A stretch of 64,000 nucleotides of DNA from Eledone cirrhosa (lineage: Eukaryota), in the NCBI GenBank assembly GCA_964016885.1, contig OZ024740.1, forward strand, positions 116,312,001 through 116,376,000, read 5' to 3'. Positions 9,769 to 56,484 of the stretch are shown here, one piece after another. The notes beneath the pieces are model-generated. The model was not told the origin of the DNA. It ran no database searches and saw nothing but the letters and a program-made list of their open reading frames with translations. Each line of letters starts with the position of its first letter. The first letter of the stretch is position 1. A program made the translations under genes and the position numbers.

Positions 9769-10076
9769 CTGATCTACATACCTATCTGGAGAATCTACAT
9801 ATATATATGTGTATGTAGAGGTGTGCGAGCAATGTGACAGCATGCTACTACGTCCGTCTCTGGGTCAAAAACATAGCACACACTTTTTCCTCTCTCTTTT
9901 TTCTTTGCTTGGTTCCTTAAAGATTACCGTCATTCCGTTGGTATAATCTATTACGCAATTTACACCTGATGAGGTCACCGGGTTTTTACGCAACCTAGTA
10001 TACACACACATCAGCCGTTAATATGCATAAGGAAAGTATATACTTTCAAACGTTCAATCGATTGACAGGAAGGTAT

Positions 10077-10111
10077 ACGGTGCTGATGACAGCTAGAAAC
10101 TAGTTCATCGT
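10077..10111 (+). ncRNA. Decayed family E hammerhead (stem II partly deleted) in element ~10011-10370
   Basis: ACGGUG-CUGAUGA-cagcua-GAAA-CUAG-UU-CAUCGU; flanks homologous to the 55330-55783 monomer. Confidence 0.6.
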
Positions 10112-11075
10112 TCCTTTGTCAATGTTGAACAAAAGAGCAACGATGGTTGCCGAACACTGTAGGCTTAATTCGGGCTGTTTGTTTACTAACAAACCGAACA
10201 TTATAATAAATGTTCGGCAAACCCATACGTACATATGTATATGTGTACATGTATGTATGTATATACATACTGCTGTACGTCTGTATACATATATGTATGT
10301 ACGTATACATACTTATATTTAAGTATCAGCCGTACTAAGAGTGAGAAATGAAATTTCAATTTTTCCATTTATATATATATATATATATATATATAGGTTA
10401 TAAAGGCCAAACAAACTGAGATGGCAGTCAAGGTTGATGGCTTCTTGACCGCCATCTCAGTTTGTTTGGCCTTTATAACCTATGTTTATTGTTCTGGTCT
10501 TTATTTGGTCCATGGAGCGCTTGCTAGCATAACTCGGATATTGAGTTTCGCTTTGTTTCCGACCACAGCCGAAATTCGATCTTGCTGAAATTATATTTGT
10601 ATATATATATATATATATCCAGAGCCTTCTCACCCCTGTTGGAGAAACCAACCCCTCCCTGGTTGACCTCCACTGTCAGAGGTGTAGCCGTACTCAACAC
10701 GCTTGGCCAATTGCGGGTTGGTGAGGCTATTCAACCGATAGTTAGGATGGATATCCGTTGAATCTGAGGAGTTTATCCGCCCTTTTAATAACTCCTGTTT
10801 TGGGGCTGTTGGGATTGCGCTTACCTTCCTCAGCAGACCAGTGTCTAGCGGGGGAGTCGGTTTAGTTACGACTGATCGACCGTGCGCGCGCGCGAGAGAG
10901 AGAGAGAGAGAGCGAGAGAGAGTGTGTGCCATGAACAGGCGCCTCTTTCCATTGTTTTCCGTTTCCAAGAGTACTTTACCTGATTCTCTCAACTTCTATT
11001 TACAGCGATCGACTATTGTTATAGTCCTTTACGTTGTATCGACGACTACAAGGTACACACACACACACACACACA

Positions 11076-19889: not shown

Positions 19890-20646
19890 ACAAAGTTTGT
19901 TTTATAACTTATATATATATATATATATATATATGAATGTATGTATTTGGCAATATAGTATATTAAATTAACTTATGAGAGAGGTGGGGATGGGGGTGGG
20001 TTATTTGGAAGCTATCGTAATAAAAATTCACGTTCGACAGAAACATCTTCAGAAAACTTCTACAGTGCAATGGATTGTGAAATTAGCATCTTCTTTGTAT
20101 CCTACTCATTAAATTTATTATTACAATATTTCTGATTAGTTTTATATTAAAGGGGGCAATTTGCAGTCATTAATACGTAGAATTAAATCCCTTGTTAATA
20201 TCTCGGGTGAAATCCTATTGAGTTCAACTTCATCTTGCATTCTTTCGGGGTAGATAAATAAAGTGCCGGTCCAGGATCGGTGGATTAGCGGAATTGTTAA
20301 AGAGGTGAACGTGATCAGGTTCCGTGCATTCTGAGTTCAAATCTCACCTTTTGACACAAGAAGAGTATTACACCTAAGAAAGGAGCTCAGTAATAGCATG
20401 GTTGATGCAGGGAGTGTCACTGGCTTACCTCCACCATGTTGTTCGCGGTGTGGAGCTGAGATATAGAGTCCATTTTTGCTCCATAGAGGAGAACAGAGTA
20501 GACAGACGCGTTATAGCTACAGAGCTTTTTCTTCCGGGAGATAGAGCAGTAGAACCAAAGGGGCTTCCGCGGGGAGCGCATGACCCTGGCGGCCAGACCA
20601 CATATAGGGTTGAACTCAGTGGTCAGGTTTCCATATATAGATATAT

Positions 20647-20730
<84 letters not shown>

Positions 20731-21429
20731 TAAAATAACAGATTAAAGTTTAAGCAAAGAATCGCTGCTTTCACCCTTAACGGGATCTTCTGAAACTAAA
20801 AAAGTCAATCTGTAAACGCAGAAGTGGATATTTCAAAAAACGTTGCAACCGGGGGGAAGACAGGAAGACGATACTTTGGTTCGTGGAAACCTTCCCTTCA
20901 CAAAACATACAGGTAATATATACTTACCTATGCAAATAAGTAATGGTATAAACATAACATATACTTAGCTACCACATAAAGACGTAAAATATCTACGTAT
21001 AGATCGTACTATCCGTTAGTTACACTGGGAGATCCTAACTAGGGCTAGATTGTATAACGGAAATAAAAGACCATGTGACCTTTGCGCCGCTGAGGCCCTG
21101 GAAATACTCTACGCCACAGACCACATCTTAAACAAAAAATCTGAGGCAATTTCAGCTTGTAAACATAAATTGCACTAAACTTTCCTGTATTACAGCCCAC
21201 ATTATACCCTAACGGATAGTACGATCTATACGTGGATATTTTACGTCTTTATGTGGTAGCTAAGTATATGTTATGTTTATACCATTACTTATTTGCATAG
21301 GTAAGTATATATTACCTGTATGTTTTATGAAGGGAACGTTTCCACGAACCAAAGTATCGTCTTCCTGTCTTCCTCCGGTTGCAACGTTTTTTGAAATATC
21401 CACTTCTGCGTTTACAGATTGACTTTGTT

Positions 21430-21480
21430 AGTTTCAGAAGATCCCGTTAAGGGTGAAAGCAGCGATTCTTTGCTTAAACT
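21430..21480 (+). ncRNA. Hammerhead-like motif, family C (CAGAAGA core variant); mirror copy 20747-20797 (-), decayed copy 9638-9688 (-)
   Basis: AGUUU-CAGAAGA-uCCC guuaa GGGu-GAAA-GCA...UGC-UU-AAACU. Confidence 0.6.
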
Positions 21481-21587
21481 TTAATCTGTTATTTTAATAA
21501 ATATTTGCTCTACGGTTCTTATATATTTGATATATATTTATCCTTATCGAGCCCTCTTTGGATTTTAGTCTTCAAATTTATTATTAT

Positions 21588-21652
<65 letters not shown>

Positions 21653-22024
21653 TATTGGTGCTCTGAAATAGCGATGTATACATGGATGTATGTACATGGA
21701 TGTATCTACAGTATATTTGGCAATATACTGTATGTTTAATTAAAAACATTTAGAAGACCATTCGCTATGAGTTTTAAAGTAGTGACTATGTCACTTACTT
21801 ATTCTCGGCAAATAACAACAGAGAGTGACCGACAGACAGTCTGTTTCTCGCTTGTGAGCGTTTCAAGACCACACACTCAGTTGCCTTTGCCGAGAATTAT
21901 AGAGGCTGGATTCTTATAGAATTCCATGCTGGACCGGCAATCGCTCTGTATAATCAGCTCCTGATTATTACAGGAATTCTATAAGAATCCAGCCTCTATA
22001 ATTCTCGGCAAGGCAACTAAGTGT

Positions 22025-22070
22025 GTAGTCTTGATAAACACTCACAAGTTTGAAACAGACTGTCGGCTGC
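22025..22070 (+). ncRNA. Hammerhead ribozyme, family D (U3-A8 variant)
   Basis: GUAGUC-UUGAUAA-acACU caca AGUuu-GAAA-CAGACUG-UC-GGCUGC. Confidence 0.65.
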
Positions 22071-22233
22071 TCTCTGTTGGTATTTGCCGAAAATAAGTAA
22101 GTGCTTAAAGTCAGTACTTTAAAACTCATAGCGAATGGTCTTCTAAATTTTTTTAATTAAACATACAGTATATTGCCAAATATACTGTACATACATCCAT
22201 GTATACATCGCTATTTCAGAGCACCAATACTGT

Positions 22234-22410
22234 GGAAGCCCCTTTGGTTCTACTGCTCTATCTCCCGGAAGAAAAAGCTCTGTAGCTATAACGCGTCTGT
22301 CTACTCTGTTCTCCTCTATGGAGCAAAAATGGACTCTATATCTCAGCTCCACACCGCGAACAACATGGTGGAGGTAAGCCAGTGACACTCCCTGCATCAA
22401 CCATGCTATT
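22234..22410 (+). mobile_element. RTE reverse-transcriptase fragment (mirrored at ~20392-20568)
   Basis: LW..SISRKKKLCSYNASVYSVLLYG resembles the RTE RT C-terminal motif. Confidence 0.55.
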
Positions 22411-25400
22411 ACTGAGCTCCTTTCTTAGGTGTAATACTCTTCTTGTGTCAAAAGGTGAGATTTGAACTCAGAATGCACGGAACCTGATCACGTTCACCTC
22501 TTTAACAATTCCGCTAATCCACCGATCCTGGACCGGCACTTTATTTATCTACCCCGAAAGAATGTAAGGTGAAGTTGAACTCAATAGGATTTGACCCGAG
22601 ATATTAACAAGGGATTTAATTCTACGTATTAATGACTGCAAATTGCCCCCTTTAATATAAAACTAATCAGAAATATTGTAATAATAAATTTAATGAGTAG
22701 GATACAAAGAAGATGCTAATTTCACAATCCATTGCACTGTAGAAGTTTTCTGAAGATGTTTCTGTCGAACGTGAATTTTTATTGCGATAGCTTCCAAATA
22801 CCCCACCCCCACCCCCACCTCTCTCATAAGTTAATTTCTATCCAGCAAGTGTTTAGCTGTCGTAACGTTTGACACTTCCCGACCTGGCTATTTCATTGTA
22901 AAAGAAAAGACGCTGTTCATTAGATCTGATGTTCCATTGGTCCTTCCATTGCGTCACTACTTTTCTAGGGGGAGAAGACGGCGTTTGAACTCGGGACGTA
23001 CAGAACCAGATCAGATATTGCAAAGTGCCCCGTCCACCTCGTTAGCAATTTCAGCGACCCCACTCCTAGACTAGTACTTTATTAATCTATACAAAGTGAA
23101 TAAAAGGCAAAGTTCACTTTCTGTGGGATTTGAACTCGGAGCGCTGTGAGCCGGATCAGACATTTCATCAGCAACCCCATTCGCCGCTTATTTGACTTAG
23201 ATATGAGGAATAACTTTCGATCAGCGAGGAAAAGAACATTAAGAACTTTAAAGCTGAGAAGTTCTATGGTCGAACACACTGCTGGGAGATGGGATTCGAT
23301 CTTAACTTCAGTTGGCAGTCCTATATTCTGCAGGTTTTTAACTTCTTGCAGAAATATGTCTTTAAAGTTTTAAATAATTTACACTGAGTGGTGAAAATAC
23401 AAAGTAGAAACATTGATATAATCAGATTATATATACAAATATATGTACATATCCGCTATTAAACGCCCGGATATGCACATAATTATGTAATATATATTAG
23501 TTCACCATTTCCCGTGTGTCTAGAAATCAGGAAGCAATTGGAATTCCGTTATTTTCCGTTTTCAATTATAATTCGTGGCTTCTACAGTTACCTCTGTTAC
23601 TCGGATTTGGTTAGTCACGTGCCATCTTCACTCAGACACACCCGGCACACTCGTTTCTCCTCCTTCCATCGCCTATATTGACTACTTCCTTTACTTCCAA
23701 ACTAACCAATATGTCGAAATCTTCTTCCCCATTCCCTACTCCCTCTGGAATTACCACTCTGCCATGAAGTTGTTTAAAACAACCACAAATTCAGAATTAA
23801 CCTCATTGGTCTCAGAGGTCCCGTGAGGGCCAAAGGAATAGCACCATCCTCTATAATAATCCAATAAAAATATCAATTAATTGTTGTTTAGACTCTAGTT
23901 AGCCCCTGGGTGAGCAAACGTACGATAGAAAGTGTTTCCAGCCACAACAACCCCACCCTTTTCTCTGATATTACATATCTTAGGCTACACTATCGAAATT
24001 TGAAAAAAAGTGTTGTAATGTTGTAATTTGAAAGGCATTTCGGTACTATTTCTTGCAGGACGAGTTACCCTATAGCCTCGCTAAATGTCAATAAGTAATT
24101 AGATGTTGTATTACCCTTCATAATGACATTATGGTGAAATATTTCATCTTCCTCATTATACACCACACACAAAATAATCTCATCCGTAATGCAGTCGTAC
24201 TTTTGGGATGGTGTAAACAGTCGGATCTTAAACTAATATCAGGTACCCATATATATGGTGTCTGCCGTTGGAATCTTGATTGACTGACAATATCCACGTC
24301 AGACGTCTATGATTTGTGTGCATATGTGGCCTCTATTGGTGATGCTGTAGCTTCACTCTCTGGAGCCAACTCTGAGCTAACTCTGAGCCAACTCTGAGCT
24401 AACATCTGGCTCTTGCATATATTGTGTCTCGTGACTGGCTGATTATATTTGCACCATATCTGCACGCTATGCATTGGTGACCTCTGCCCGCGGTGCTGTG
24501 GATTCTTTGGTTGGAGTCGACTTAGCTGATCCTAGGTTAAACACCAACAAAAGTAAATGTGTGAGTAATCTACCGAGTGATGAGATCGATGACTTTATGG
24601 ATGAGAGCGGATCGGGGTAGAAATATTTGGTACCGTTTTGGAAAGGCTTTTGTTGTGAGATTTATTATTATTATGATGATGTTTTAAGGGCGGTTGATTG
24701 GCAGTATCAATAGAGCGTCGGAAAACGTGGTATAGAATTACGATCCTTTACTTTCTGAGTTCAAATCCCGCCGAGGTTAGCTTTACCTTTCATCCTTACG
24801 GGGTCGACAAAATAAAGTACTTTTAATACACTGGCGTCAATTTAATTGACTATCCCCTTTCCTTGAAATTGTTGGCCTTATGCTGAAGCTAGAAATAATT
24901 ATGATGACGTTTCGTTAGAGCATCAGAGAAATACTTTGCAATATTTACTCCAGCTCTTTACTTTCAGATTTCAAATCCAGATGAGGTAAACTTTTCCTTT
25001 CATCTTTCTAGGATTGATAAAATAAAATACCAGATTACTGAAAAAATAAAATACCAGATCTATACTGAGATTTATTTATTCAACTTTCACCTTTTCTACA
25101 AAACCCTTGCTTTGTGCATGAATCAGAAATAATGATGATGATGTTGAATATGCCGATTGGTCAATACTTTTCTCCTTAAATACGACGTACACCTAGATAT
25201 ATATTTAATCAATTATTTTATAATGTGGTACTTTACTGTTTAGGCTATTGCTATTGTGCTTTGATATTTACTGTGATTATAGATTTCATTTTTGAAAATA
25301 ACGATTGAACATAAAATATATTTTCTCTGTTGATACTATTGATACTATATATATATTAGAAAGTGAGTTTTTTTTTACAAAATGAAAAAAAAACCGAGGT

Positions 25401-25525: not shown

Positions 25526-25566
<41 letters not shown>

Positions 25567-25611
25567 AAGGCTTCTACAGGACTAGAACTGTTTCATTCGG
25601 GTGAAATCGTC

Positions 25612-25664
25612 AGGCTTCCTGATGATTTCTCCCGTATGAAACAGTTCTAGTCCTGTAGAAGCCT
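25612..25664 (+). ncRNA. Hammerhead ribozyme, family A
   Basis: AGGCUUC-CUGAUGA...GAAA-CAG..CUG-UA-GAAGCCU; stem I covaries with the 3762 copy. Confidence 0.8.
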
Positions 25665-25744
25665 TTCTATATTAAATATTTATACTCTGCTTTGTATTGA
25701 GTACCTTACTTACTGTAGTTACCCCCGATTGAATCCGGGATAAA

Positions 25745-26928: not shown

Positions 26929-27011
<83 letters not shown>

Positions 27012-27043
27012 AGATCAAAAGATGGTTAAAGGAGTTCCATATA

Positions 27044-27110
27044 TTTTATTATGCGCATTTCAAAAACAAACATCATCAAGCAATAATATTTGTGTTTTCA
27101 TCAGATAAAA
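27044..27110 (-). ncRNA. Hammerhead ribozyme, family G
   Basis: Minus strand UUUUAU-CUGAUGA-long stem II-GAAA-UGCGCA-UA-AUAAAA; palindromic AUGCGCAU; inside palindrome 27005-27066/27173-27234. Confidence 0.75.
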
Positions 27111-27318
27111 CAGGAGAACATGATATGAAGGCTAAAAAACACTTGTGGATAGTGCAGTTTTAAATCAACATTTTTTTGAAATGCGCATAATAAAATATAT
27201 GGAACTCCTTCAACCATCTTTTGATCTTATATTATGCATACTCCAGTCCCACAAACTGTAGAGTGCTTCTTATCCGATATCTGCATTGCTTTATTGTACT
27301 ACAATAAAACTCACCTCC

Positions 27319-28780: not shown

Positions 28781-30076
28781 GTGCGTGTGGGGGGGGGGGT
28801 ATATATGGGTGTATACATATGAATATATATTGGGATATTAATTATATTCATGTCCCTATGGCTTTTTTATGTAATTCATATGTACTAATTGTTGTTGCCG
28901 CTATTATTGGTATTAAGGGTGGTGTATTGTTAGAGCATGCTTTGTGGCATTTAGCTACGATTCTTGACGTTCGGAGTTCAAATCCCTCCGAAATAAAATT
29001 TGTCTTTGACCTTTCCGGGAGTGATAAAAATAAAGTACCAGTGAAGTACTGGGTTCGATAGAACTGACTTCGCCTTACCTCAAAATTGTTGGTTTTGTGT
29101 CTAAATTAGAAATCATTGTTATCAGTTAATCAAGGATAGTGGATTGGCAGTATCGGTAGAGCGTCGGTCAATATACCTTGTGACAAACAGTTACGGCCTT
29201 TGCGTTCTGATTTCAAATTCCGCCGAGGTTAGCTTTGCCTTTCATCCTTACGGGCTCGATAAAATAAAGTACCAGTGATGCACTGGGGGCGTCGATTTAA
29301 TGTGGCACTGAGAATTGAACTTATGACCGTACGCTTGTGAGTCGAACACCTTAACCAGTAAGTCACGTGCCTTCACATTAACTAATGTTTAAACAATTTA
29401 ACTGACAGCGTATGCCTGGTGTTGCTGACTTCACATAAGATGAATGGGGGCATAACTACCTTCTACGGCGTGATTGTCGTGGTGGCGGCGGTGGCGATGG
29501 TGGTACCAGTGGGGATGATGGTGTGTGCCATATTGGTGGTGATGATGATGATAAGGATAATAATGAGAATTGTGAGGCTGGTGGTGATGATATTGTTATT
29601 GATGATTACGAGGGGGAGGAGGAAAATAAAATATTTATATTACAGAACTCCTGTGTTTCCAAAATACTGTACAGATGTTATGAATATATCTAAGATATTT
29701 CTGAGCAAATCTAAATGTGTACGACCTTGTTGTAATGTGTGTATGCATATACTTGAATGCGCTGAAAATTTCTCGGCTGAACCCATTTCCCACAGCTCTT
29801 GAACAGGCTGTCTATATATATATATATATATATATAGGAAAACGTATGACCCCGACGGCAGAGCACAAGCCGTTTCGGCGGCTATTTCTGGACTAAATTA
29901 GAATTTTTAGCATGGTAAATCAATAGCCGAACTTGTCAAGGGGTACTTCCTTATATGGGAAGATTGTAGTTGTTGAGAGGATTGGTTAAAATTTGTTGTA
30001 AACACAAATAAGTCTATTATGGCATTTGTACTCTGGTGCGTTATGGTCCATCTGGTTCCTTACCACAATTCCTTCG

Positions 30077-30118
<42 letters not shown>

Positions 30119-30673
30119 GTGTCTGTGTCTATGTGTCAGTACGCACTGGTGTGTATATATACGTATAAACCGTAGTGATTTCCAGAATTTGATTGAGAAG
30201 ATAAGACTGTCCGTCTTTCCGTTGTTTTTTCATTGTCTTTGTCCTGTGCGCCCCCTATATTGAATATATATATATATATATACATAAATGTGTGTGTGTA
30301 TGTGCCTGTTTATTCATATGTATATGTTTGTGTGTGTATGGGAGAGAGGGAGAGAGAGAGAGAGGGAGAGAGTGAGAATTTGCCAACGATTCATGCTTTT
30401 TAAATTACATAATAGAAAAAAAATTGGAAATACTTTTCTAAAATCAAATTACTGAAAATGTTTCTTAATGTTACAAGGCGGATCTTCCAAAATAGCACAA
30501 TATAAATATTCATTTAAAATGTATTTATATAATGAAACACTATAGTTTATATAACACACTGTTAAATATATGGTTGAAGTAATAGGAGTGATTCACTTGA
30601 CATGAACGGGATTTGAACTCAGAATACATAGATCCTGAACGAATCTTGCAAAATATTGTATCCGACACTCAAA

Positions 30674-30889
30674 AGATTCCATTGATTCGTCGCCTTATTA
30701 ATAATTATTCCCGGATAAAAGGTGATGCCGGATTATCAGTTACCGGAAAATCGGTGTCGTACTTGTATCTGAATTAAAAATCAAATGCACGAACCTTTTG
30801 GTTATTGTAACTGTTATGTACATAATTCCTATAAAAAAAGTCCATCCATACTATAGGAGACAAGGAAAGATGTAACCCATTCAACACCA
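30674..30889 (-). repeat. Inverted duplicate of exon B 3' part, its donor site and downstream intron (34578-34789)
   Basis: Reverse complement aligns with ~15 mismatches and one 4-nt insertion by manual count. Confidence 0.93.
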
Positions 30890-31037
30890 ACAGAAAGGAA
30901 TTCCTTTCTTTTGAAAGGAGGTGCTAACTGGAAAATATCGTAAATTATATGGTAAAATTGTGAACTGTTGTTTTGTTTGTTTTTTTACTTTATTCTACTT
31001 TAGTTTTCATATACATTTAATCCTTTTTGTTTTACAG

Positions 31038-31243
31038 TATGTACCATGAACGGTCCTCTTGGGATGTCTACTGGTACCATCAAAGACTTCCAAATCAAAA
31101 GTTCCAACAGCTATCCACAAGTCTGGGACAAATTTTGCCATGAAAAATATGCACGAGTGTTCATGCCGAACAAATATGGTTGGTGTGCTAAATATAAGTC
31201 ACCATCAGAATGGTTGATGGTTGATCTTGGTGTTGCTGCAAAG
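31038..31243 (+). CDS. Exon A: start of discoidin domain 1
   Basis: tttacag|TA TGT ACC ATG...GCA AAG|gtattt; CTMNGPLGMSTGTIKDFQIKSS...GWCAKYKSPSEWLMVDLG, typical FA58C N-terminus. Confidence 0.93.
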
Positions 31244-32914
31244 GTATTTCAATTTATGATTCAATATTTTTTATAACATAATGTAACCCATAAAATAAAA
31301 CGCTTATGATTTTCAAATATTTTGATAATCAAGAAATTGAAGCGACTTAGTAATATAACTTTTTTAATATTAAGCTAAGTTTCTTGGAGCACAGTTGCGA
31401 AAGGTTTTAAGATAAAATTATAATTGAAGGGTTTTAGATAGATATAAACATTTTAAGACAAATAGTTTTGAATCGCAAAACAATGGGCGGTTTTATGTGG
31501 TTTGATATCAGAAAGGTTAAGTTGGTGTTTGGAGCATAACTTAACAAAAGTTCTTGCATAGGATTATAATTGTTTCTACTTTTTGGCACAAGGCCAACAA
31601 TTATCCCAGTGCATTACTGGTACTTTATTCTATCGACCCCGTAAGGATGAAAGGCAAAGTCAACCTCGGCGGGATTTGAACTCAGATCGTAAAGGGACGT
31701 AACTATGCTGGAAAGCATGGCGTCCGACCCTCTACCGATACTGCCAATCCAGTCATAATGAAAGGTGATTAGATAAGTATAAACAAGTATATAAGTATAA
31801 ACATGTTAAAGCGAATCATTTTGTATCATAGAACCAGAAACGGTTTCATATTAAAAGGGTTAAATCATAGTTCTTTTTTTTTTTTTGTTTTGTTTTTTTG
31901 ACGATGGGCGTATTTACATTAATGTACGGTCGTGTAAATCAAATAGGGTTTCTTTTGCAAATTCTACATCTGTGTGCTTGTCATCTACCGAGTCTAGGGG
32001 CCGATGCTAATCTATGTATGCTGTAATTGTGTTTGTAGGAGCCAATTCGGGAACCAATAATGATGTGAAGACGCCTTGGTTCGCTATAGGAATTTTTTTC
32101 TTAATAGCTCCTTCTAAATAACTCATTATTGTAGTAAGGACCTGCATAGGTGAATATCTGTCTATTGAAAGTCAGGTTGTTTGAAATTGAACAATGATTG
32201 TTGTAACCTTTATAACGACAGCATCGTCAGTGACTGATAATAATGGTGATAAAGGAATGAGAAAAAATGACAAAATATATAACTACCTAATATATTAACT
32301 TGATTCTTAATTTTATTTTTGAATCCACGTGTTATAGTGTTCTACTTAGTGTTTTTACCAGGGACGGAACTTCGGTGTTCTAGCTCCTTAGACAAGCCCA
32401 TCAAGGTGCGGGTCCTTCTCCCAAATAAACTAATTACAATTTACAGTTTGGTTAGCTGACGAATATAGGTTTTGATACTTCTTGCTCCGACCAAACTAAA
32501 AAATTGTATAAGCCTGCATTTTCTATTACACGATCCACACACTCCCACGCCAGATATTATCACAGCGCTGATACGCAACAAAGATGTTTGTGATTTATTT
32601 ATTGATCGAAAGAAATTATTATATATTAGATTTAATTATACAAATTTGTATAAAACTGTGAATCTTTAATGCTCAGTAACGTGCCTCTCAGTGTGGTTCA
32701 GCAATTCGCTTCTTTGTTGTCTGTGCCCTAGGCGGCAGACAAGTCAGCCTTAATGGCAGAGCCAACGCTGTTCCTATATATAAAATTTATTAATTATGAA
32801 GAGCTGAAATTTCACAAGTCACTACTCAGTTCTGAATAAATATTTTCCACTCTATTTAACCGATTTCGGTACATTTTTCGCCCATTTGTATATACAGCGT
32901 GTATCTTTTTCTCC

Positions 32915-32973
<59 letters not shown>

Positions 32974-33949
32974 GCATGAGTGTGTGTATATAGACATATA
33001 TTCTAGTAAAGGATGTATAACATACGATTTGGGGACGTGAAAAATCACAAATAATTAGTGAAATAATTAAATATGAATTAATTAAAGGAGTGAAATTTGT
33101 CGATAACATACTTCAAAGCTTGGTAGAATATAGTAATTAAACTTATAAATGAACTTGCTTGACGGAAATGCTAAAGTTAAATATTACACTAAGTACATTA
33201 CTGTTCAAATATAGGTAGGATGGTGCAGTTGACATCCGGACTTGCTACTCTTTAGTATCCGGTTTTGGGGCACAACAAAATATCGGTCAACCGTGCTATA
33301 TAGGACTTCAGTGTCGTTAAAATATTCACCCATAATACAGTGAACCATTTGGCAAAGAACATTGGTAACAATGTGGTTATATATTTTTTTTTTAATCAAT
33401 TGGTAACGAATAAAATCATGACTGAACAATGTCTATACAAAAATTACAAATCAAAAACTAAGGTTATGAAAGATCCATTCGATTCGTTCATGCGAATTCT
33501 GTGTACACGCAATTTAGTGTATTACTTGGCTAGCTTCATATTTATTTGGCTTCACTTTATAAATGGTGTTTGTCCTGTAAGCATTTATTTTGTGCCCCTC
33601 GATAATTAAGTGATTGTTAAATAAGTTTACACACTTAAATAAATGATGTGCATTAAAAAAGACAAAATACGTTAAGAAAACGATAAATCGAAAGCGAATT
33701 TTTTCTTTCACTTTAATCATTCTTGTATTTACTGTACAATTATAATATTGTTTTTATTATAGGCCGTTAATTTTATTTATAATTTGTATTATATATTTTT
33801 ACAAGAACGCTTTGGGTGTAAATATTTGGTTTATATATACTTATATATTAATTGATGTGGTAACGAATAGTGGCATAGAACGAATTAGATTCGTGTTGTG
33901 TGCAACACACAACAAACAAATGCAAGATGGTGTAGGACAGAACAAATTA

Positions 33950-33992
33950 GTCACTGAGGAGGTCACAGAATATGTGACGAAAGAGCTTTGAC
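33950..33992 (+). ncRNA. Minimal hammerhead ribozyme, family B
   Basis: GUCA-CUGAGGA-G-GUCAC agaauau GUGAC-GAAA-GAGC-UU-UGAC. Confidence 0.75.
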
Positions 33993-34082
33993 AATAAATA
34001 AACAACCATCGGGTTATTAAACTAACCAGCCGGAAATTTATGATAAATTGAAGTGTATTTTTATTGGCAGCATGATCCCTCC

Positions 34083-34126
<44 letters not shown>

Positions 34127-34169
34127 AAATGGCGGGTGGGAGCGGCCACAGTCATTTTTGTGTAATAAT

Positions 34170-34357
34170 TGTTTCTACTTTAGGCACAAGGCCAGCAATT
34201 ACCCAGTGCATTACTGGTACTTTATTTTATCGACCCCGTAAGGATGAAAGGCAAAGTCAACTTCGGTGGGATTTGAACTCAGATCGTAAAGGGACGTAAC
34301 TATGCTGGAAAGCATGGTGTCCGACCCTCTACCGATACTGCCAATCCACCGCCCTTG
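34170..34357 (-). mobile_element. SINE family 1, with TSD gtgtaataat
   Basis: Reverse complement of the family consensus; TSD at 34160 and 34358. Confidence 0.8.
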
Positions 34358-34545
34358 GTGTAATAATAAAAGGCAATTGTCCGCTATATGATAGGTGTGT
34401 GGTTGGATTCCTTGGGGTAGTACTGTCCACTTTTTTCTGTCTCCAGGTGTATTTTACTTATTCTATTATTATTCATTGTTCATCTGCTTTGTAGCGGCTT
34501 TTGAAAAAGCAAACATATTTTATGTATATATGTGTTTCTTTCTAG

Positions 34546-34668
34546 GTAACTGGAGTTATGACCCAAGGGCGTGGTGATGGTACTGAATGGGTTACATCTT
34601 TCCTTGTCTCCTATAGTATGGACTCTTTTGATTGGAATTATGTACATGACAGTTACAATAACCAAAAG
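34546..34668 (+). CDS. Exon B: discoidin domain 1 middle
   Basis: ttctag|GTA ACT GGA...CAA AAG|gttcgt; VTGVMTQGRGDGTEWVTSFLVSYSMDSFDWNYVHDSYNNQK (TQGR..WVTSF motif). Confidence 0.93.
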
Positions 34669-34703
34669 GTTCGTGCAGTTGATTTTCAATTCAGATACAA
34701 GTA

Positions 34704-35265
34704 CGACACCGATTTTCCGGCAACTGATAATCCGGCATCACCTTTTATCGGGGTATAATTATGAATAAGACGACGAATCAACAGAATCTATCGAAGTCAA
34801 TAAATAAGTACCAGCTGAATACTGGACTCGATTTTCTCTCACCCCACTTTTTCCTCACTCCCCTCTATCCCTTCCACTCTGTCTTCTCTCTCCTCTATGT
34901 TTCTCCTCTCTTCTCCTCCCCTCCCAATCTCACTCTCTCCCTCTCTCTCTCTGAGAGTAATCAACTGTGTTTCGACCTGAGAGGGATATATTCCATCAAG
35001 TTTTAAATTCCGAAGACGGCGTTCCTACGATTCCATCCAGAGTTCAGCGCCGATGGATGAATAAAAAAAATAATTATGAGTACTTATTTGAATTCCTTGC
35101 AGCTCGCCAATTATATCTAAGATCATGATATGAGTGTGTGATCTGAGATATAATTTTAAACATTGAGGAATAGACAGTTTTTACGCCTACATTATATATT
35201 TCTGGTGAATTATTATATTGTCTGGTAAAATGGATAATCCGGCGGGTGTCGGAAAATCGGTGTCG
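34704..35265. mobile_element. Tc1/mariner (pogo/Tigger-like) MITE
   Basis: TA|CGACACCGATTTTCCGGCA ... TGTCGGAAAATCGGTGTCG|TA: 19-bp TIR with 1 mismatch, TA flanks. Confidence 0.7.
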
Positions 35266-35919
35266 TAGCTTTATTTAAATTTTGAGTGATTTTTTTAGCA
35301 GAGTCCGCTCTGTGATAAACAGCCAGACAAGTTTCTGGTTGTAGGTGAAGTTAATACATTGATGTTTTGCTCCTTAATACTGCAATCAGTGAGTCTAATC
35401 TCAGCGAGCTTTAATAAAGGTCCCGAGCGCTGTCCCCCTTTCTCTGACCAAGAAATAGAGCAAAAAAAAAAAAAATGGAATTATTTGTAGAAATGTAATT
35501 AGAAGACATATTTTCTATAATTAATACTAATTTGTTTTGAATATTTTGTTAAAAGATATGTGTTTTTAGACATTCTATGATAAATTTAATGGGATGTAAC
35601 CCAATTCTTTTACAAGCCATGCTGAGAATAGCTAAACAAATGTAAATACATTTCTCTATTCTCTTCGTACAAAAAAGAATATAGTAATTGCTTTTCCCGT
35701 TCCATAGAGTTATTGGGACTCCATCAAAAGACAATACCTCTAACCTCTAATGATAGTAGATCGCTATTCAAGTCTACAAAACAACTGAAATGGTCAGTCT
35801 ATTTTACATAACAGACATTTGTTAGATATATATGATTAGTTAAGCAATAAAATCTGTTTATTGATTTGTTGGTTTGATTATTTTTTTTATTGTTTTAATG
35901 ATTTATCTATTGTGTTTAG

Positions 35920-36058
35920 GTGTTCGAAGGCAATATTGATTCGTATTCTGTGAGGCACTCCTATTTCGATCAACCGATATTGGCCCGTTACATCAAATTC
36001 CACACTGTCAGCTGGAATAAACACCCTAGCATGCGTGTGGAGATACTGGGATGTCAAT
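35920..36058 (+). CDS. Exon C: discoidin domain 1 end
   Basis: tttag|GTG TTC GAA GGC AAT...CAA T|gtaagt; VFEGNIDSYSVRHSYFDQPILARYIKFHTVSWNKHPSMRVEILGCQ. Confidence 0.93.
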
Positions 36059-36559
36059 GTAAGTTAACAAATATTTTTTAGTACTGCTATTATATTACAA
36101 AATACGATTGGCAGCATCGGTAGAGAATCGGACAACATGCTTTGTGGCATAGAATTACGACCCTTTACGTTATGAGTTCAAATCTCGCTGAGGTTAGCTT
36201 TGCCCTACATCCTTAAGCGGTCGATAAAATAAAGTATCAGTAACACACTGTGGTTACTGATACTTTAATTGACTTCCATCGCCCCTAAAATCACTGACAT
36301 TGTGCCTAAATCAGAAACTATTATTATTTTATCCCAAAATTAAATCCTGATTAATTGTTATTGTGAAGATGGGAGAGTAATTATTTGTATTGTCCAGTTC
36401 CATCTTCTTCCATCTTAGTAACTCAATGACTATTCTATTGTTTATATATATATATGGTGAGTGCTCCAATTATTCGATTAGCGGAGCAGCCTGCTCGCGA
36501 AATTGAGTTTCACTCACAAGGCATGAGTCGGTGGGAAGCTATAGTAAATGACACGTTAA

Positions 36560-37560
36560 TTGACTGAAAGATAAATAAAATAGGTTGTTTATGTACAGAT
36601 GGGTGGCATAACTGTTAATAGAATATGGGCAGGAGAGATGACAGTCGACTTGTGTTGCATTGGTACAATCTGATAAGGAATTTCTAATGCAAGAGGTGAG
36701 CTATGAGAAGAGGCATTAAGTGAGCAGCTTGCCTGAAGATCTTTGCATTAGATACGCCCCAATCATTTGTTGATGTCAAGAGCTATATGAAAACTAATCT
36801 TTCCTGAGAATCGAGCTCTCTGTAGAACAAGTTAGTTTGGCATAATAAACCGAGAAGTAAGATAACACTGAGTGTCTTCATGATATTTAATTTAAAAAAT
36901 TATTAAATTCAATACGTTTATACAGATTAAGCAATCTATCCAGATGTCTGATATTTTTGTCGTAATGGTACAGACCTACACCGCAGAAAATTAAGGAGTG
37001 AAATCTTTTTAGAATAGTTGGTGAGAAAAGATTTTAATAATAAAATTAAACATAAAAAAAGCATTAGGTGAGCATCTTGCCTGAAGATCTTCGCATTAGA
37101 CACGTTCCTAGGATTTGTTGATGTCAAGAGCTGTAACAACTCTGAACTCTCTTGAGATCAGGCTCTCTGTAGGTGAACGAGTTAGTTTAGCCTCATAAAC
37201 CCAGAAGTGGGATAATACTCGGAGAATATAATATTGAAAAACTTGAAAGGAATATGAGAAACAGAAGAGAAGTAAAATAGGGAAAGGAGATTTTTAAAAA
37301 AACAGATTTAGACAGTGTTTCCTCAGAGATAGATAAAGCAGATCAAAGGAGAAAAGAAGAAAGACTAAAAGAAAAGGTGAAGTAAAAGCGAAGCAGATTT
37401 TTTGTCAAGTACAGAGGCTGTTGGCGTAACTGTGATGGGATTATAAAGGCTTAAACAAAAGAGGAAAATAGAACCAGATGAGATAAAAATAGTTTTGAGT
37501 GAACTGGATAGGGAAGTAGGAGAGGAAGTGAATCTACGAGCAGACTCAAAGAACACGCTT
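36560..37560 (-). mobile_element. Decayed CR1-like LINE RT fragment with internal duplication
   Basis: Minus strand IALDINK.. resembles ALDISKAFD; the segment occurs twice (~36712 and ~37060). Confidence 0.4.
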
Positions 37561-45707: not shown

Positions 45708-47229
45708 TTACTGTATTGTTTACTTTCTAATTATATATATATACCCGTATGTAGTTGACGGACGAGAAAAAAGAGTACAGAATTCCGAAATGGAATTTAA
45801 ATATTCATTTATTATAGCTAAGTAGTGAGTCCAGTGTCAATAAGTGGAGCTCCAGGGTAACAAGACTTACTACTTAGACATTAAATATATATATATATAT
45901 AAAGAGAGAACGAGAAAATAAGGGACAGATTTATAGACAAATAGATAGATATTACACCATTGATCATCGAATATTAATTTTATGGATGCATGAACGTGTA
46001 CAAATCTGTTTCATCTATCGAAAATACAAAGTACATTATTCAACACAGTATGGAACAACAGTATCAGATCGATGATAATTGATAATAAATAATGAGGTAA
46101 ACAAATATCTGTTGAGAGTTTGATTGCAATAAGCTCGGAGTTTCCTCTGTATCAATCTGGGTTAATTTCTTTGACCTTCTGTATCTATTTTCTTTAATTC
46201 TCTTTCATTCAACTTCTCCTTATTTTTTCTAGAATCAGTGGTATTGGAATTCAGAGAGCCATAATGATGAAGGACTGGTAAGGTCTAACTTCGGCGCTGA
46301 TAGCTTTTCATGCTGGATTGGTCAATAGAAAGGATTGCAGTAGAGCATTTGATAACCTTTAGGTCCTCATTGCTCTTTGCACTTCCTCTTAGATTAGTTG
46401 TAAATAATCTCCTCTGCACATGTATGCGCAATGCGGTGTTAAACTACATCATTTGAAATATGTATAGCCAATTTTGCTTATGTGGAATTTTCATAACCAC
46501 GCAAAGAAAGATAATCCAGTGGCTAAGAAATAGGAGCATGCCCAATCTAAGTGTTATAGAATATAATGATGATGCAATGAAAAATAAAAAAGATAATATA
46601 CACAGTATATATTACCTTTTATGAGAATTATTTATCAAGAGACATTTCTGTTCAGCTGAGCCACGTTTAAATTTTCTTTATTTGGCTTTCTAATGCAGTA
46701 TTTGATGCAAGTTTTGTAAGCCAAACTTTGCATTAAATGGACACCGTCCCAGATTCATAGGAGAATCAAAATGATAAATTACATCGTTCTTATCTCTTTC
46801 TCAAAAGCATGTTTGTCTGCAACTGAAAAGAGTTGAGACTATAAATCAAGACTGATAATATTCAGTTTATTGCTTATGTAACCACTGCTCTACTATGATG
46901 GTGCAACACCACCTGGTTAGGTAGAGGTTCTAACGCCTGGAAACATTATAAACAATATATGTAATAAGATTGTTAATTATAATGAATTATCAGTTGAAAT
47001 CAGACTTGATGATGAAAAGTAATGTTAATGATGAAGATGCGACTACTGTTGGTAATTGGGTAACAGTAATGATGACGACGATGAAATGAAATCACCAACA
47101 ACAACGCTATATAAAATAACAAATGAGAATAACTGTATCTATTGATCAATCCGAACACCACGTTATTGCATGGATCTCCTGGAACCATTGTTTCATCTGT
47201 TTCTTATTCATAGTTTCCTGCCTATTTTA

Positions 47230-53062: not shown

Positions 53063-53302
53063 TGGAAAATCTGGCTTTTAAAAAGGAAAGTTGGATCAAC
53101 AGTAAACGCCATATTAAAAGACATATAAGGCATCAAGATAAAGATGGACCAGCATCTAGAGCCGTAGATGGAAAGACTAAATCTGTACTCCCTGAATGTA
53201 CAACACTAGATAATTTGTATGGAGAAAATCCAGTTTGGATGGTCGACCTCGGGCCTAAAACCAATGTATCAGGTGCTATTATTTACACATGGCAAAACAG
53301 AG
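53063..53302 (+). CDS. Exon H: F-type lectin-like domain N-half
   Basis: tttcag|TG GAA AAT CTG GCT...AGA G|gtaaga; ENLAFKK...ASRAVDG...CTTLDNLYGENPVWMVDLG...IIYTWQNR. Confidence 0.9.
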
Positions 53303-53525: not shown

Positions 53526-53596
<71 letters not shown>

Positions 53597-53652
53597 GTAA
53601 GTATGTATGTATACGTACATACATATATGTATACAGACGTACAGTAGCATGC

Positions 53653-53683
<31 letters not shown>

Positions 53684-53855
53684 CGGGTACACATACATAT
53701 ATGCACGCATCAGTTTAGCGGACGCTTATTATAACGCCGCTTTGTTCGTTTGTAAACAAACTGAACAGCCTGAATTTATGCCATACGGTGTTAAGGCATA
53801 ATTTTCATAAGGAAAGTATATACTTTCGAACGTTCAACTATCTGGCAGATGGGTA

Positions 53856-53900
53856 AACGGTGCTGATGATAGCTAACAAGCTTGAAACTAGTACATCGTT
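53856..53900 (+). ncRNA. Minimal hammerhead ribozyme, family E
   Basis: AACGGUG-CUGAUGA-uAGCU aaca AGCUu-GAAA-CUAG-UA-CAUCGUU; palindromic loop III (ACUAGU). Confidence 0.85.
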
Positions 53901-54049
53901 CCTGTGTCAGTGTTGAACAAAAAGGTGACGTGGTTGCCTTAACACCGTATGGCATAAATTCAGGCTGTTCAGTTTGTTTACAAACGAACAAAGCGGCGTT
54001 ATAATAAGCGTCCGCTAAACTGATGCGTGCATATATGTATGTGTACCTG

Positions 54050-54080
<31 letters not shown>

Positions 54081-54209
54081 GCATGCTACTGTACGTCTGT
54101 ATATATATATGTATGTACGTATACATACATACTTACATTTAAGTAAGTGCCATACTAAGAGTGAGAAATGAAATTTCGTTTTCATTTTTTTCAACTTATA
54201 TATATATAT

Positions 54210-54304
<95 letters not shown>

Positions 54305-54307
<3 letters not shown>

Positions 54308-54381
54308 GGTATCCCAAAAATGTATACACACTTTCATTAGAATGCTATTGAAGTGGGTATACATTTTGGGAGCACACCCTG
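54305..54381. mobile_element. 77-bp Tc1/mariner-type MITE
   Basis: TA|CAGGGTATCCCAAAAATGTATAC..GTATACATTTTGGGAGCACACCCTG|TA. Confidence 0.7.
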
Positions 54382-54784
54382 TATATATGAATCAAGTATG
54401 TTTAGATGACAGCGAGCGGATTTTGAAAATTGAAATAGAAGGGCATATAACAGTGCATATAAGCAGGAAAAATGGAGATAAGCATACGCGGAGGTCGAAC
54501 CCCACACCTTGTTTTTGCCGGAGAAGTATGCTACCGTTTACTCGAGCGTGTCATTAATCGGTCTTCTGTCGCTAACAATTAATGAACTTCGGTTTAAGCA
54601 GCATTAAACACTCCACGTCAGTATTCATTTCCTAGTATGATATGGGATAATGTAGGTCATTGTATGATGAAGTATTGGTATAATAATAAAATAGAAGGCA
54701 GTAGGGGTTTACTTCAGCACATTACATATATTATACATTGTATAAGTGTGATATGGTGACGTAAAACCTATTTCCTTCGATCTC

Positions 54785-54851
<67 letters not shown>

Positions 54852-55073
54852 GTAAGTATGTATGTATGTATACGTACATACATATATGTATACAGACGTA
54901 CAGTAGTATGTATATATATACATACATGCACACATATATATATGCACGTATCGCTTTACCGAACATTTATTATAATGCTCGGTTTGTTTGTTTGTAAACA
55001 AACAAACAGCCCGAATTACGCCGTACAGTGTTTAGGCAACCACGTCATCTTTTTGTTCAACACTGACACAGGA

Positions 55074-55116
55074 ACGATGTACTAGTTTCAAGCTTATTAG
55101 CTATCGTCAGCATCGT
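55074..55116 (-). ncRNA. Minimal hammerhead ribozyme, family E
   Basis: Minus strand ACGAUG-CUGACGA-uAGCU aaua AGCUu-GAAA-CUAG-UA-CAUCGU. Confidence 0.85.
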
Positions 55117-55459
55117 ATACCTTCCTGCCAGATGGTTGAACGTCTGAAAGTATATACTTTCCTTATGCATATTAACGGCTGAGCAGCCTAATTTGCATAT
55201 CGAGTGAGTTCAGTCGGCCGGGCACACCAAAAACAATAAATGAAATAGAATGAAACGAAATTTCATTTCTCACTCTTAGTACGGCACTTACTTAAATGTA
55301 AATATGTATGTATGAAACTAGTACATCGTATTCCATTTATCGTTTTCGGTGTGCCCGGCCGACTGAACTCACTCGATATGCAAATTAGGCTTCTCAGCCG
55401 TTAATATGCATAAGGAAAATATATACTTTCAGACGTTCAACCATCTGGCAGGAAGGTAT

Positions 55460-55502
55460 ACGATGCTGACGATAGCTAGTAAGCTTGAAACTAGTACATC
55501 GT
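55460..55502 (+). ncRNA. Minimal hammerhead ribozyme, family E
   Basis: ACGAUG-CUGACGA-uAGCU agua AGCUu-GAAA-CUAG-UA-CAUCGU. Confidence 0.85.
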
Positions 55503-55778
55503 TCCTGTGTCAGTGTTGAACAAAAAGGTGACGTGGTTGCCTAAACACTGTACGGCGAAATTCGGGCTGTTTGTTTGTTTACAAACAAACAAACCGACCA
55601 TTATAATAAATGTTCGGTAAACCGATACGTGCATATATATATGTGTGCATGTATGTATATATTTATACATACTACTGTACGTCTGTATACATATATGTAT
55701 GTACGTATACATACATACTTACATTTAAGTAAGTGCCGTACTAAGAGTGAGAAATGAAATTTCGTTTCATTCTATTCC

Positions 55779-55855
<77 letters not shown>

Positions 55856-56091
55856 AGTATGCATGTATACGTACATACATATATGTATACAGACGTACAG
55901 TAGCATGCACATATATATATATATATACATATATATATACATATGCATACAGGTACACATACATATATGCACGTATCAGTTTAGCGGCGCTAACGTCGCT
56001 TTGTTCGTTTGTAAACAAACTGAACAGCCTGAATTTATGCCATACGGTGTTAAGGCAACCACGTCACCTTTTTGTTCAACACTGACACAGG

Positions 56092-56136
56092 AACGATGTA
56101 CTAGTTTCAAGCTTGTTAGCTATCATCAGCACCGTT
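56092..56136 (-). ncRNA. Minimal hammerhead ribozyme, family E
   Basis: Reverse complement of the 53856 motif. Confidence 0.85.
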
Positions 56137-56376
56137 TACCCATCTGCCAGATAGTTGAACGTTCGAAAGTATATACTTTCCTTATGAAAATTAACGGCTG
56201 AGCAGCCTAATTTGCATATTGAGTGAGTTAAATCGGTCAGGCATACCGAAAACGATAAATTGAAACAAAATGAAAACGAAATTTCATTTCTCACTCTTAG
56301 TATGGCACTTACTTAAATGTAAGTATGCATGTATACGTACATACATATATGTATACAGACGTACAGTAGCATGCAC

Positions 56377-56407
<31 letters not shown>

Positions 56408-56484
56408 CATATGCATACAGGTACACATACATATATGCACGTATCAGTTTCGGATTTTAATCTTCACATTTATTATTATTACCA

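Follow-up and report, generated by a model that had tools for sequence, protein, structure and literature searches.

An inverted partial copy of a coding exon within a lactadherin-like gene of Eledone cirrhosa is most likely a neutral repair scar

Pairing of an exon with a partner located elsewhere in the same pre-mRNA is known from the Q/R site of GRIA2, which is served by an intronic editing-complementary sequence (ECS), and circular RNAs (circRNAs) are likewise associated with reverse-complementary matches in flanking introns. As regards the origin of the sequence described here, the closest precedent appears to be the inverted duplication of exon 12 in human CHM, in which microhomologies of 8 and 4 bp were found and which was assigned to fork stalling and template switching (FoSTeS) or to MMBIR, a break-induced replication that depends on microhomology (PMC8756506). 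The current work concerns an inverted copy of the 3' end of a coding exon (exon B), located in an upstream intron of the same lactadherin-like gene, within a stretch of 64,000 nucleotides from Eledone cirrhosa (GenBank assembly GCA_964016885.1, contig OZ024740.1, positions 116,312,001 to 116,376,000 of the forward strand), the whole of which is named the window and to which positions refer unless indicated otherwise. This copy is most likely a neutral, lineage-specific repair scar, which may be an incidental substrate of ADAR, the adenosine deaminases that act on RNA. The arms of the duplication and the exons concerned are:

30674..30892, minus strand: inverted copy of 34575-34789, antisense to the gene, inside its 52-kb upstream intron, and the sole extra copy in the genome
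34575..34789, plus strand: source arm of the duplication, recognised by its sequence match to the copy
31038..31243, plus strand: exon A, which opens the first F5/8 type C domain; 206 nt, phase 1-0
34546..34668, plus strand: exon B, from the middle of the first F5/8 type C domain; 123 nt, phase 0-0
35920..36058, plus strand: exon C, part of the first F5/8 type C domain, placed by protein mapping and a spliced contig

BLASTN comparison within the window aligned 30674-30892 with 34789-34575 at 90.9% identity (199 of 219 columns, E=1e-82), the two arms differing at 16 substituted positions and by 4 nt that are inserted in the copy. Over the ungapped columns alone the identity is 92.6% (199/215), in agreement with the roughly 92% given by the preliminary description of this DNA, in which the reverse complement of the exon B 3' end, its donor and the adjoining intron had been recognised. 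The copy comprises the 3' 94 nt of exon B, the AAG/GTTCGT donor and a 121-nt portion of the intron, to which belongs the left end of an element resembling a miniature inverted-repeat transposable element (MITE), and it ends 145 nt ahead of the exon A acceptor (31038), where about 150 nt had been estimated. The arms lie 3,683 nt apart, on either side of exon A. A genome search performed with 34547-34800 returned 9 matches, namely exon B, the inverted copy and 7 dispersed matches of about 80% to the MITE end alone, the exon B part being present at two places in the genome only. The within-window match and the genome search together identify the nearby and unique template that is expected of a templated insertion.

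The copy is very improbably an artefact of assembly. A 602-nt contig of sequencing run X1 covers 30854-31455, encompassing the end of the copy, its right junction and exon A, with 0 differences, and the X1 contigs break inside a 34-bp stretch common to both arms (at 30854 and 34613), as expected if both arms exist; moreover, the arms are separated by the differences listed above, and an ancestral Val codon is kept in the copy. What could be said for an artefact is that X1 may stem from the very sample that was assembled, and that X6, a restriction-site-associated DNA (RAD) run, has almost no depth at the copy.

The host gene is single-copy and encodes a lactadherin-like protein with two F5/8 type C domains (PF00754 x2), as do lophotrochozoan lactadherin-like proteins; the P0001 protein maps onto the window exon by exon, and exon A shows 93% identity to Octopus sinensis XP_029636990.1, the difference being a Thr in exon B here versus the Val of coleoids. 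The upstream exon which had been said to be required by the phase of exon A is indeed present, 52 kb away, at window positions -21256..-21092 (G000:C1 ~116290745-116290909), where a coding exon found by homology ends in the matching phase 1, the resulting intron measuring 52,129 nt. In addition, a spliced contig of run X4 carries 195 nt 5' of exon A, none of which is placed within 30450-31034. From the matching phase and these 195 nt it follows that the copy lies very likely inside the pre-mRNA of the gene, and thus in the same transcript as the exon with which, as an ECS, it would have to pair. X4 contig 9 (2,581 nt, depth 127) joins exon A to exon B and exon B to exon C, differing from the window at 0 letters, and the gene is therefore expressed and spliced normally; no exonisation of the copy was seen in this main A-B-C contig. 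An Rfam scan of 29000-37000 gave 10 matches, all of which fell on simple repeats and remained well short of the gathering scores, with none on the arms.

Two origins can be discarded: an inversion with staggered breaks is ruled out because exon A, between the arms, keeps the orientation of the gene, and a paralog or processed pseudogene is ruled out because the gene is single-copy and the copy contains intron sequence. The junctions of the copy involve the following features, to none of which, except the repeat remnant, a strand was assigned:

30674..30679: microhomology AGATTC; among the 14 other copies of the repeat family that were listed, 2 have AAAGATTCTG at this place and most of the rest a close variant
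30590..30679, plus strand: remnant of an old dispersed repeat, apparently of short interspersed nuclear element (SINE) type, truncated where the copy starts
30892..30909: perfect 18-bp palindrome adjoining the right junction of the copy
34698..35271: old MITE-like element, ends approximate, with 18-bp inverted termini, of which only the first ~90 nt are in the copy

At the left junction, the 6-nt microhomology AGATTC is common to the repeat remnant and to the reverse complement of source positions 34784-34789, as expected of templated insertions, and the continuation of the repeat family was sought beyond the copy and not found. The right junction has no clear microhomology, its place being taken by the palindrome; 699 kb of unmasked sequence contain 46 palindromes of this kind, corresponding to a chance of about 0.5%, calculated post hoc, of encountering one near either junction. 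The few nucleotides at 30919-30933 that resemble the first part of exon B are too weak a match to be used. Taken together, the junction features appear to fit a template-switch insertion accompanied by a deletion.

The inverted termini of the MITE-like element were located at 34702-34719 and 35250-35267, and its right part is also matched by 4 of the 7 dispersed loci. The exact 20-nt terminus pattern has 1 match in the genome and no full-length family member was found among the 40 of 278 candidates scored, which indicates that the element is old. Since only its left ~90 nt are included in the copy, the copy is younger than the insertion of the element, and the order of events proposed in the preliminary description, a local inverted duplication following the MITE insertion, is upheld.

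According to the mechanism that we propose, a DNA end broken or stalled inside the old repeat upstream of exon A would have primed on the opposite strand at 34784-34789 via the AGATTC microhomology, after which ≈215 nt would have been copied backwards through the MITE end, the donor and exon B, and rejoining with the fold-back palindrome, with loss of the repeat's tail, would have completed a templated insertion of the FoSTeS/MMBIR type. The copy would then have drifted neutrally, being at most an incidental, unselected ADAR editing partner. We consider it likely that the copy is such a one-off product of DNA repair. In C. elegans, inserts made by polymerase theta are mostly <25 bp and derived from the immediate flank, with 2-3% coming from >1 kb away (PMC5068794), so that MMBIR-type switching is the better fit for an insert of 215 bp whose template lies 3.9 kb away.

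The divergence of the arms is consistent with neutral drift. Substitutions between copy and source amount to 7/94 in the exon part and 9/121 in the intron part (Fisher p=1.0). As octopod orthologs match the exon at the five residues concerned, 5 of the 7 exon-part changes, and the 4-nt insertion, would have occurred on the copy, which compares with 3.5 such changes expected at the intron rate (probability of at least 5, 0.27), and a G-U wobble is found at only 1 of 16 mismatches. On this comparison, the copy appears to have decayed at about the neutral rate, and the signs that would be left by selection for pairing (slow decay, wobble, compensatory changes) were not seen in this single pair, which offers low power. 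In X5, which is from another organism, exon B and the MITE end are present at about 88% identity, with a depth of 3.1 over 30828-31016 and of 7.4 over exon A, as compared to 14-18 for the single-copy contigs of X5; at the six arm sites listed, the exon and the copy of the window agree against X5 at 5, and the copy agrees with X5 at 1. These sites lean toward an insertion that took place after the split from the X5 lineage, the low depth making this no more than a hint.

Pairing of the two arms is predicted to yield a duplex of -316 kcal/mol at 37 C, which is thermodynamically possible in the pre-mRNA and has the stability that an ECS calls for; it contains two perfect exon stretches, of 34 bp and of 29 bp, the latter being the helix at 34649-34677 that had been noted before. 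A duplex of about 210 bp that buries exon B and its donor had been suggested; in the predicted fold the donor is paired and the acceptor of exon B is free. Local folds of the arms are unremarkable (z=-0.51 and -0.80). The duplex would be formed only in those transcripts that keep the upstream intron when exon B is made. It is quite unlikely that the copy is wholly inert and its duplex never forms measurably, be it through earlier removal of the upstream intron or through local folding of the arms: such a view, which represents the zero-editing end of the explanation preferred here, is favoured by the spacing of the arms on opposite sides of exon A, and X4 has no depth over 30828-31016, a hole that proves nothing, but neither arm has an unusual local structure and little would compete with the -316 kcal/mol duplex.

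Within the duplex, the preliminary description had drawn attention to A34582, the first base of the following codon:

34582..34584, plus strand: Thr codon ACT; the copy reads GTT (Val), as in 15/15 coleoid proteins with the motif

A34582 does lie opposite a C. It was overlooked, though, that C34583 faces an A as well, leaving A34582 unpaired in a 2x2 loop at ~7 nt from the helix end. As judged from the sequences compared, the A·C mismatch arose secondarily, when the exon later underwent a Val>Thr substitution, since Val is kept by the copy and by the 15 coleoid proteins (a set in which some proteins are assigned to coleoids by similarity, and from which 11 proteins lacking the motif were left out). 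The residue position is occupied by 11 different residues among 70 orthologs, and editing of A34582 would yield Ala, not the ancestral Val. The exon arm contains 27 adenosines, of which 24 are paired, and 20 of the paired ones would be non-synonymous if edited; for this reason, any duplex formed is predicted to undergo scattered low-level editing, not aimed at A34582. Hyper-editing usually targets long near-perfect duplexes, which are unusually frequent in Octopus (PMC5625713).

The interpretation of the copy as an ECS maintained by selection gained no support, the exon and intron parts of the arms being equally diverged, wobble pairs being nearly absent from the mismatches and the spliced contig being unchanged; neither a selected ECS nor a splice switch is supported. 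The copy can be described as a potential exon-intron ADAR duplex, and does not pass as an ECS, conserved pairing having been looked for and not found. The X4 spliced contig was checked for A>G changes on exon B and carries A at every such position, although it represents majority letters only, so that minor or neural-specific editing could escape.

It is improbable that the repair accident created, from the exon itself, a functional ECS which recodes discoidin domain 1 in neurons and which may have shielded the G-to-A change in the Val>Thr codon so that it could be fixed, in line with the harm-permitting model (PMC6881472). Such a de novo ECS would profit from the location of the copy within the pre-mRNA, from the stable duplex with its perfect exon stretches, from an A·C skew of 8:1, from the UAC context of A34582 opposite C, and from the fact that both non-synonymous changes of the exon lineage are situated inside the duplex. 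It is opposed by the unedited spliced contig, by the Ala that editing would produce at a highly variable position, by the distribution of the As of the 8 A·C mismatches (5 belong to the intronic copy, 2 to intron B-C and only 1 to the exon) and by the missing sign of conserved pairing; furthermore, the editing context of coleoids was estimated at +/-100-200 nt, in a study ignoring introns (PMC8891338). If it were true, the new ECS would be a case in which the emergence of coleoid recoding sites from the self-duplication of an exon is traced and can be dated, and a genome might contain around a hundred loci of this kind. In 64,827 characters of the supplement to Shoshan 2021 (PMC8382921), whose per-site tables may be elsewhere, 0 matches were obtained for lactadherin, MFGM, EDIL3 and MFGE8. 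No coleoid ECS formed by exon self-duplication was found in the literature covered, outside of which are most subscription papers, and on which per-site supplements could bear.

The proposed splice switch, by which the hidden donor B would cause in-frame skipping (41 aa) or back-splicing of A-B into a 329-nt circle, was not supported, and we rate it as very unlikely. The A-B-C contig includes exon B, so that the exon is not skipped in the main mRNA, and this contig makes up all X4 depth at 34569, 34602, 34614, 34623 and 34656, the five exon-B positions listed; minor skipping could escape contigs. Skipping would remove positions 47-89 of Pfam PF00754 from the domain, and the exon B span is kept in all 66 relatives in which it is measurable, none with <40 residues, these proteins being from other species. 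The switch is, on the other hand, favoured by a donor that is predicted to be covered by the duplex, as hairpin-driven skipping presupposes, that lies inside the perfect helix and that departs from the consensus (GTTCGT), by the frame symmetry of exon B, and by intronic arms flanking A-B in the manner of the reverse-complementary matches of circRNAs. CHM provides a precedent for skipping (PMC8756506), but the copy in CHM is larger, contains the whole exon and forms a short loop, as detailed below. In O. vulgaris, most editing is found in introns or 3'UTRs, splice sites are rarely altered and circRNAs are low (PMC9699675).

Several points weigh against our interpretation of a neutral scar. The similar copy in CHM has been proposed to cause exon skipping (PMC8756506). 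The transition mismatches between the arms are A·C, not G·U, in 8 of 9 cases, against a background of 285:269 in the 52 other inverted pairs of the gene (p=0.04, post hoc; another inverted pair in the gene shows 13:4), and edited As of coleoids are enriched at A·C mismatches (PMC8891338). Of the 14 close inverted pairs in the gene, that of exon B is the only one touching coding sequence. If intron A-B were removed first, the loop would be reduced to ~380 nt, which would favour pairing. Contigs keep majority letters and drop minority forms, the tissue and library of X4 are unrecorded, and the comparison covers 40 of 426 differences and 15 of 3,581 joints, among which two dispersed-repeat copies in the stretch dominate. 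Lastly, four of the blocks used below as background have no verified event, and the rate of such events may be regional.

The frequency of comparable duplications was estimated from a background sample of 904 kb, made up of a 504-kb block surrounding the window and four 100-kb blocks chosen arbitrarily, in which inverted pairs of at least 100 bp and at least 85% identity, within 10 kb and without distant matches, were retained. This resulted in 6 low-copy inverted clusters, including the exon B copy. When the other 5 were searched genome-wide, 3 were found to be locus-specific, and the remaining two were dropped, being members of transposon families. The 3 locus-specific duplicates are all in the 504-kb block of the window: one shares the 52-kb intron with the exon B copy, and two are less than 4 kb apart; the verified events are thus absent from the four 100-kb blocks. 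Based on 2-3 events per 0.9 Mb, and taking 150,000 exons of 170 nt per genome as our assumption, a rough estimate of 116-174 exon-overlapping inverted duplicates per genome is reached (95% range about 14-510). With so many cases estimated, a single one at exon B is not surprising, and the class can be tested genome-wide. Across the span of the gene there are 53 inverted pairs, 14 of which are within 5 kb; the exon B pair ranks fourth by score, and two other folded pairs of the gene are stronger (-1152 and -497 vs -316 kcal/mol).

Several further repeats were recorded. In the same 52-kb intron, 19965-22837 has 604-bp arms of 99% identity (19965-20568 and 22234-22837), with only two full-length copies in the genome, and these arms enclose two further inverted pairs (20633-21649 and 21651-22231). 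This structure would represent a recent, complex template-switch event and, with a predicted duplex of -1152 kcal/mol, a stronger ADAR candidate than the exon B copy, albeit non-coding. Outside of the window, L057:5887-6581 and L057:7846-~10000 (G000:C1:116561887-116566193) are two inverted duplicates, of 87% and 92% identity, which are specific to their locus and neighbours within 4 kb, possibly the result of one complex event. The 174-bp unit at L065:3920-4093 (G000:C2:150053920) belongs to a young and abundant family of repeats (94-98%), members of which are often arranged genome-wide in close inverted pairs, likely a foldback or MITE-type element. Intron A-B contains, at 31566-31751 and 34165-34348, two direct copies, 96% identical to each other, of a dispersed repeat that is very abundant; for each of them, pairing is predicted to be possible with the inverted copies located at 29131-29287 and 36106-36250 (-194 to -226 kcal/mol). 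Small inverted duplications are situated beside TA microsatellites at 25548-25684 (67-bp arms, 3-nt gap) and 26999-27240 (68-bp arms, 106-nt gap), and copies of one repeat, in direct as well as inverted orientation, are densely intermingled at 53530-56450, in the intron after the exon at 53063-53301, with more near 10011-10395. As to the coding part of the gene, a 45-nt in-frame exon at 46233-46277 (NQWYWNSESHNDEGL) is present or absent among isoforms of Octopus and other coleoid proteins, some bivalve isoforms having longer inserts at the same place; it looks like a conserved alternative exon inside the second F5/8 type C domain.

The inverted exon copy is probably ordinary, and its main value is that of a natural test of whether chance duplexes create recoding in coleoids. 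The origin and adaptiveness of coleoid recoding sites are disputed, with PMC6881472 arguing that they are non-adaptive, and a structural study states that introns were largely ignored (PMC8891338). At the present locus, the origin of the partner strand is known and its age roughly so, and the locus could show whether a chance exon-intron duplex suffices for recoding; if nothing is edited, the copy is an ordinary repair scar.

When compared with known systems, the duplex shares with the intronic ECSs of the GRIA2 Q/R type, and with inverted repeats that act as editing substrates or inducers (PMC4053975, PMC5625713), the pairing of exon and intron in a pre-mRNA, here in a lineage of very high ADAR activity. 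Classical ECSs, however, are conserved and site-selective, whereas the copy has no conserved pairing and its long near-perfect duplex is of the kind tied to unselective hyper-editing, as far as can be predicted. With templated insertions of the FoSTeS/MMBIR or polymerase-theta type (PMC8756506, PMC5068794) it has in common the priming by microhomology, the nearby template, the deletion associated with an insertion and the fold-back scar. The resemblance to CHM (PMC8756506) consists of an inverted coding exon plus flank within a nearby intron of the same gene, microhomology at the junction and a predicted pre-mRNA hairpin. In CHM, the duplication is new, spans 1,752 bp with the whole exon and a 274-nt loop, and is pathogenic, the exon being skipped, whereas the copy described here has 219 bp, is 9% diverged, contains part of an exon and would close a 3.7-kb loop across another exon, in a gene of which the normal spliced form is present.

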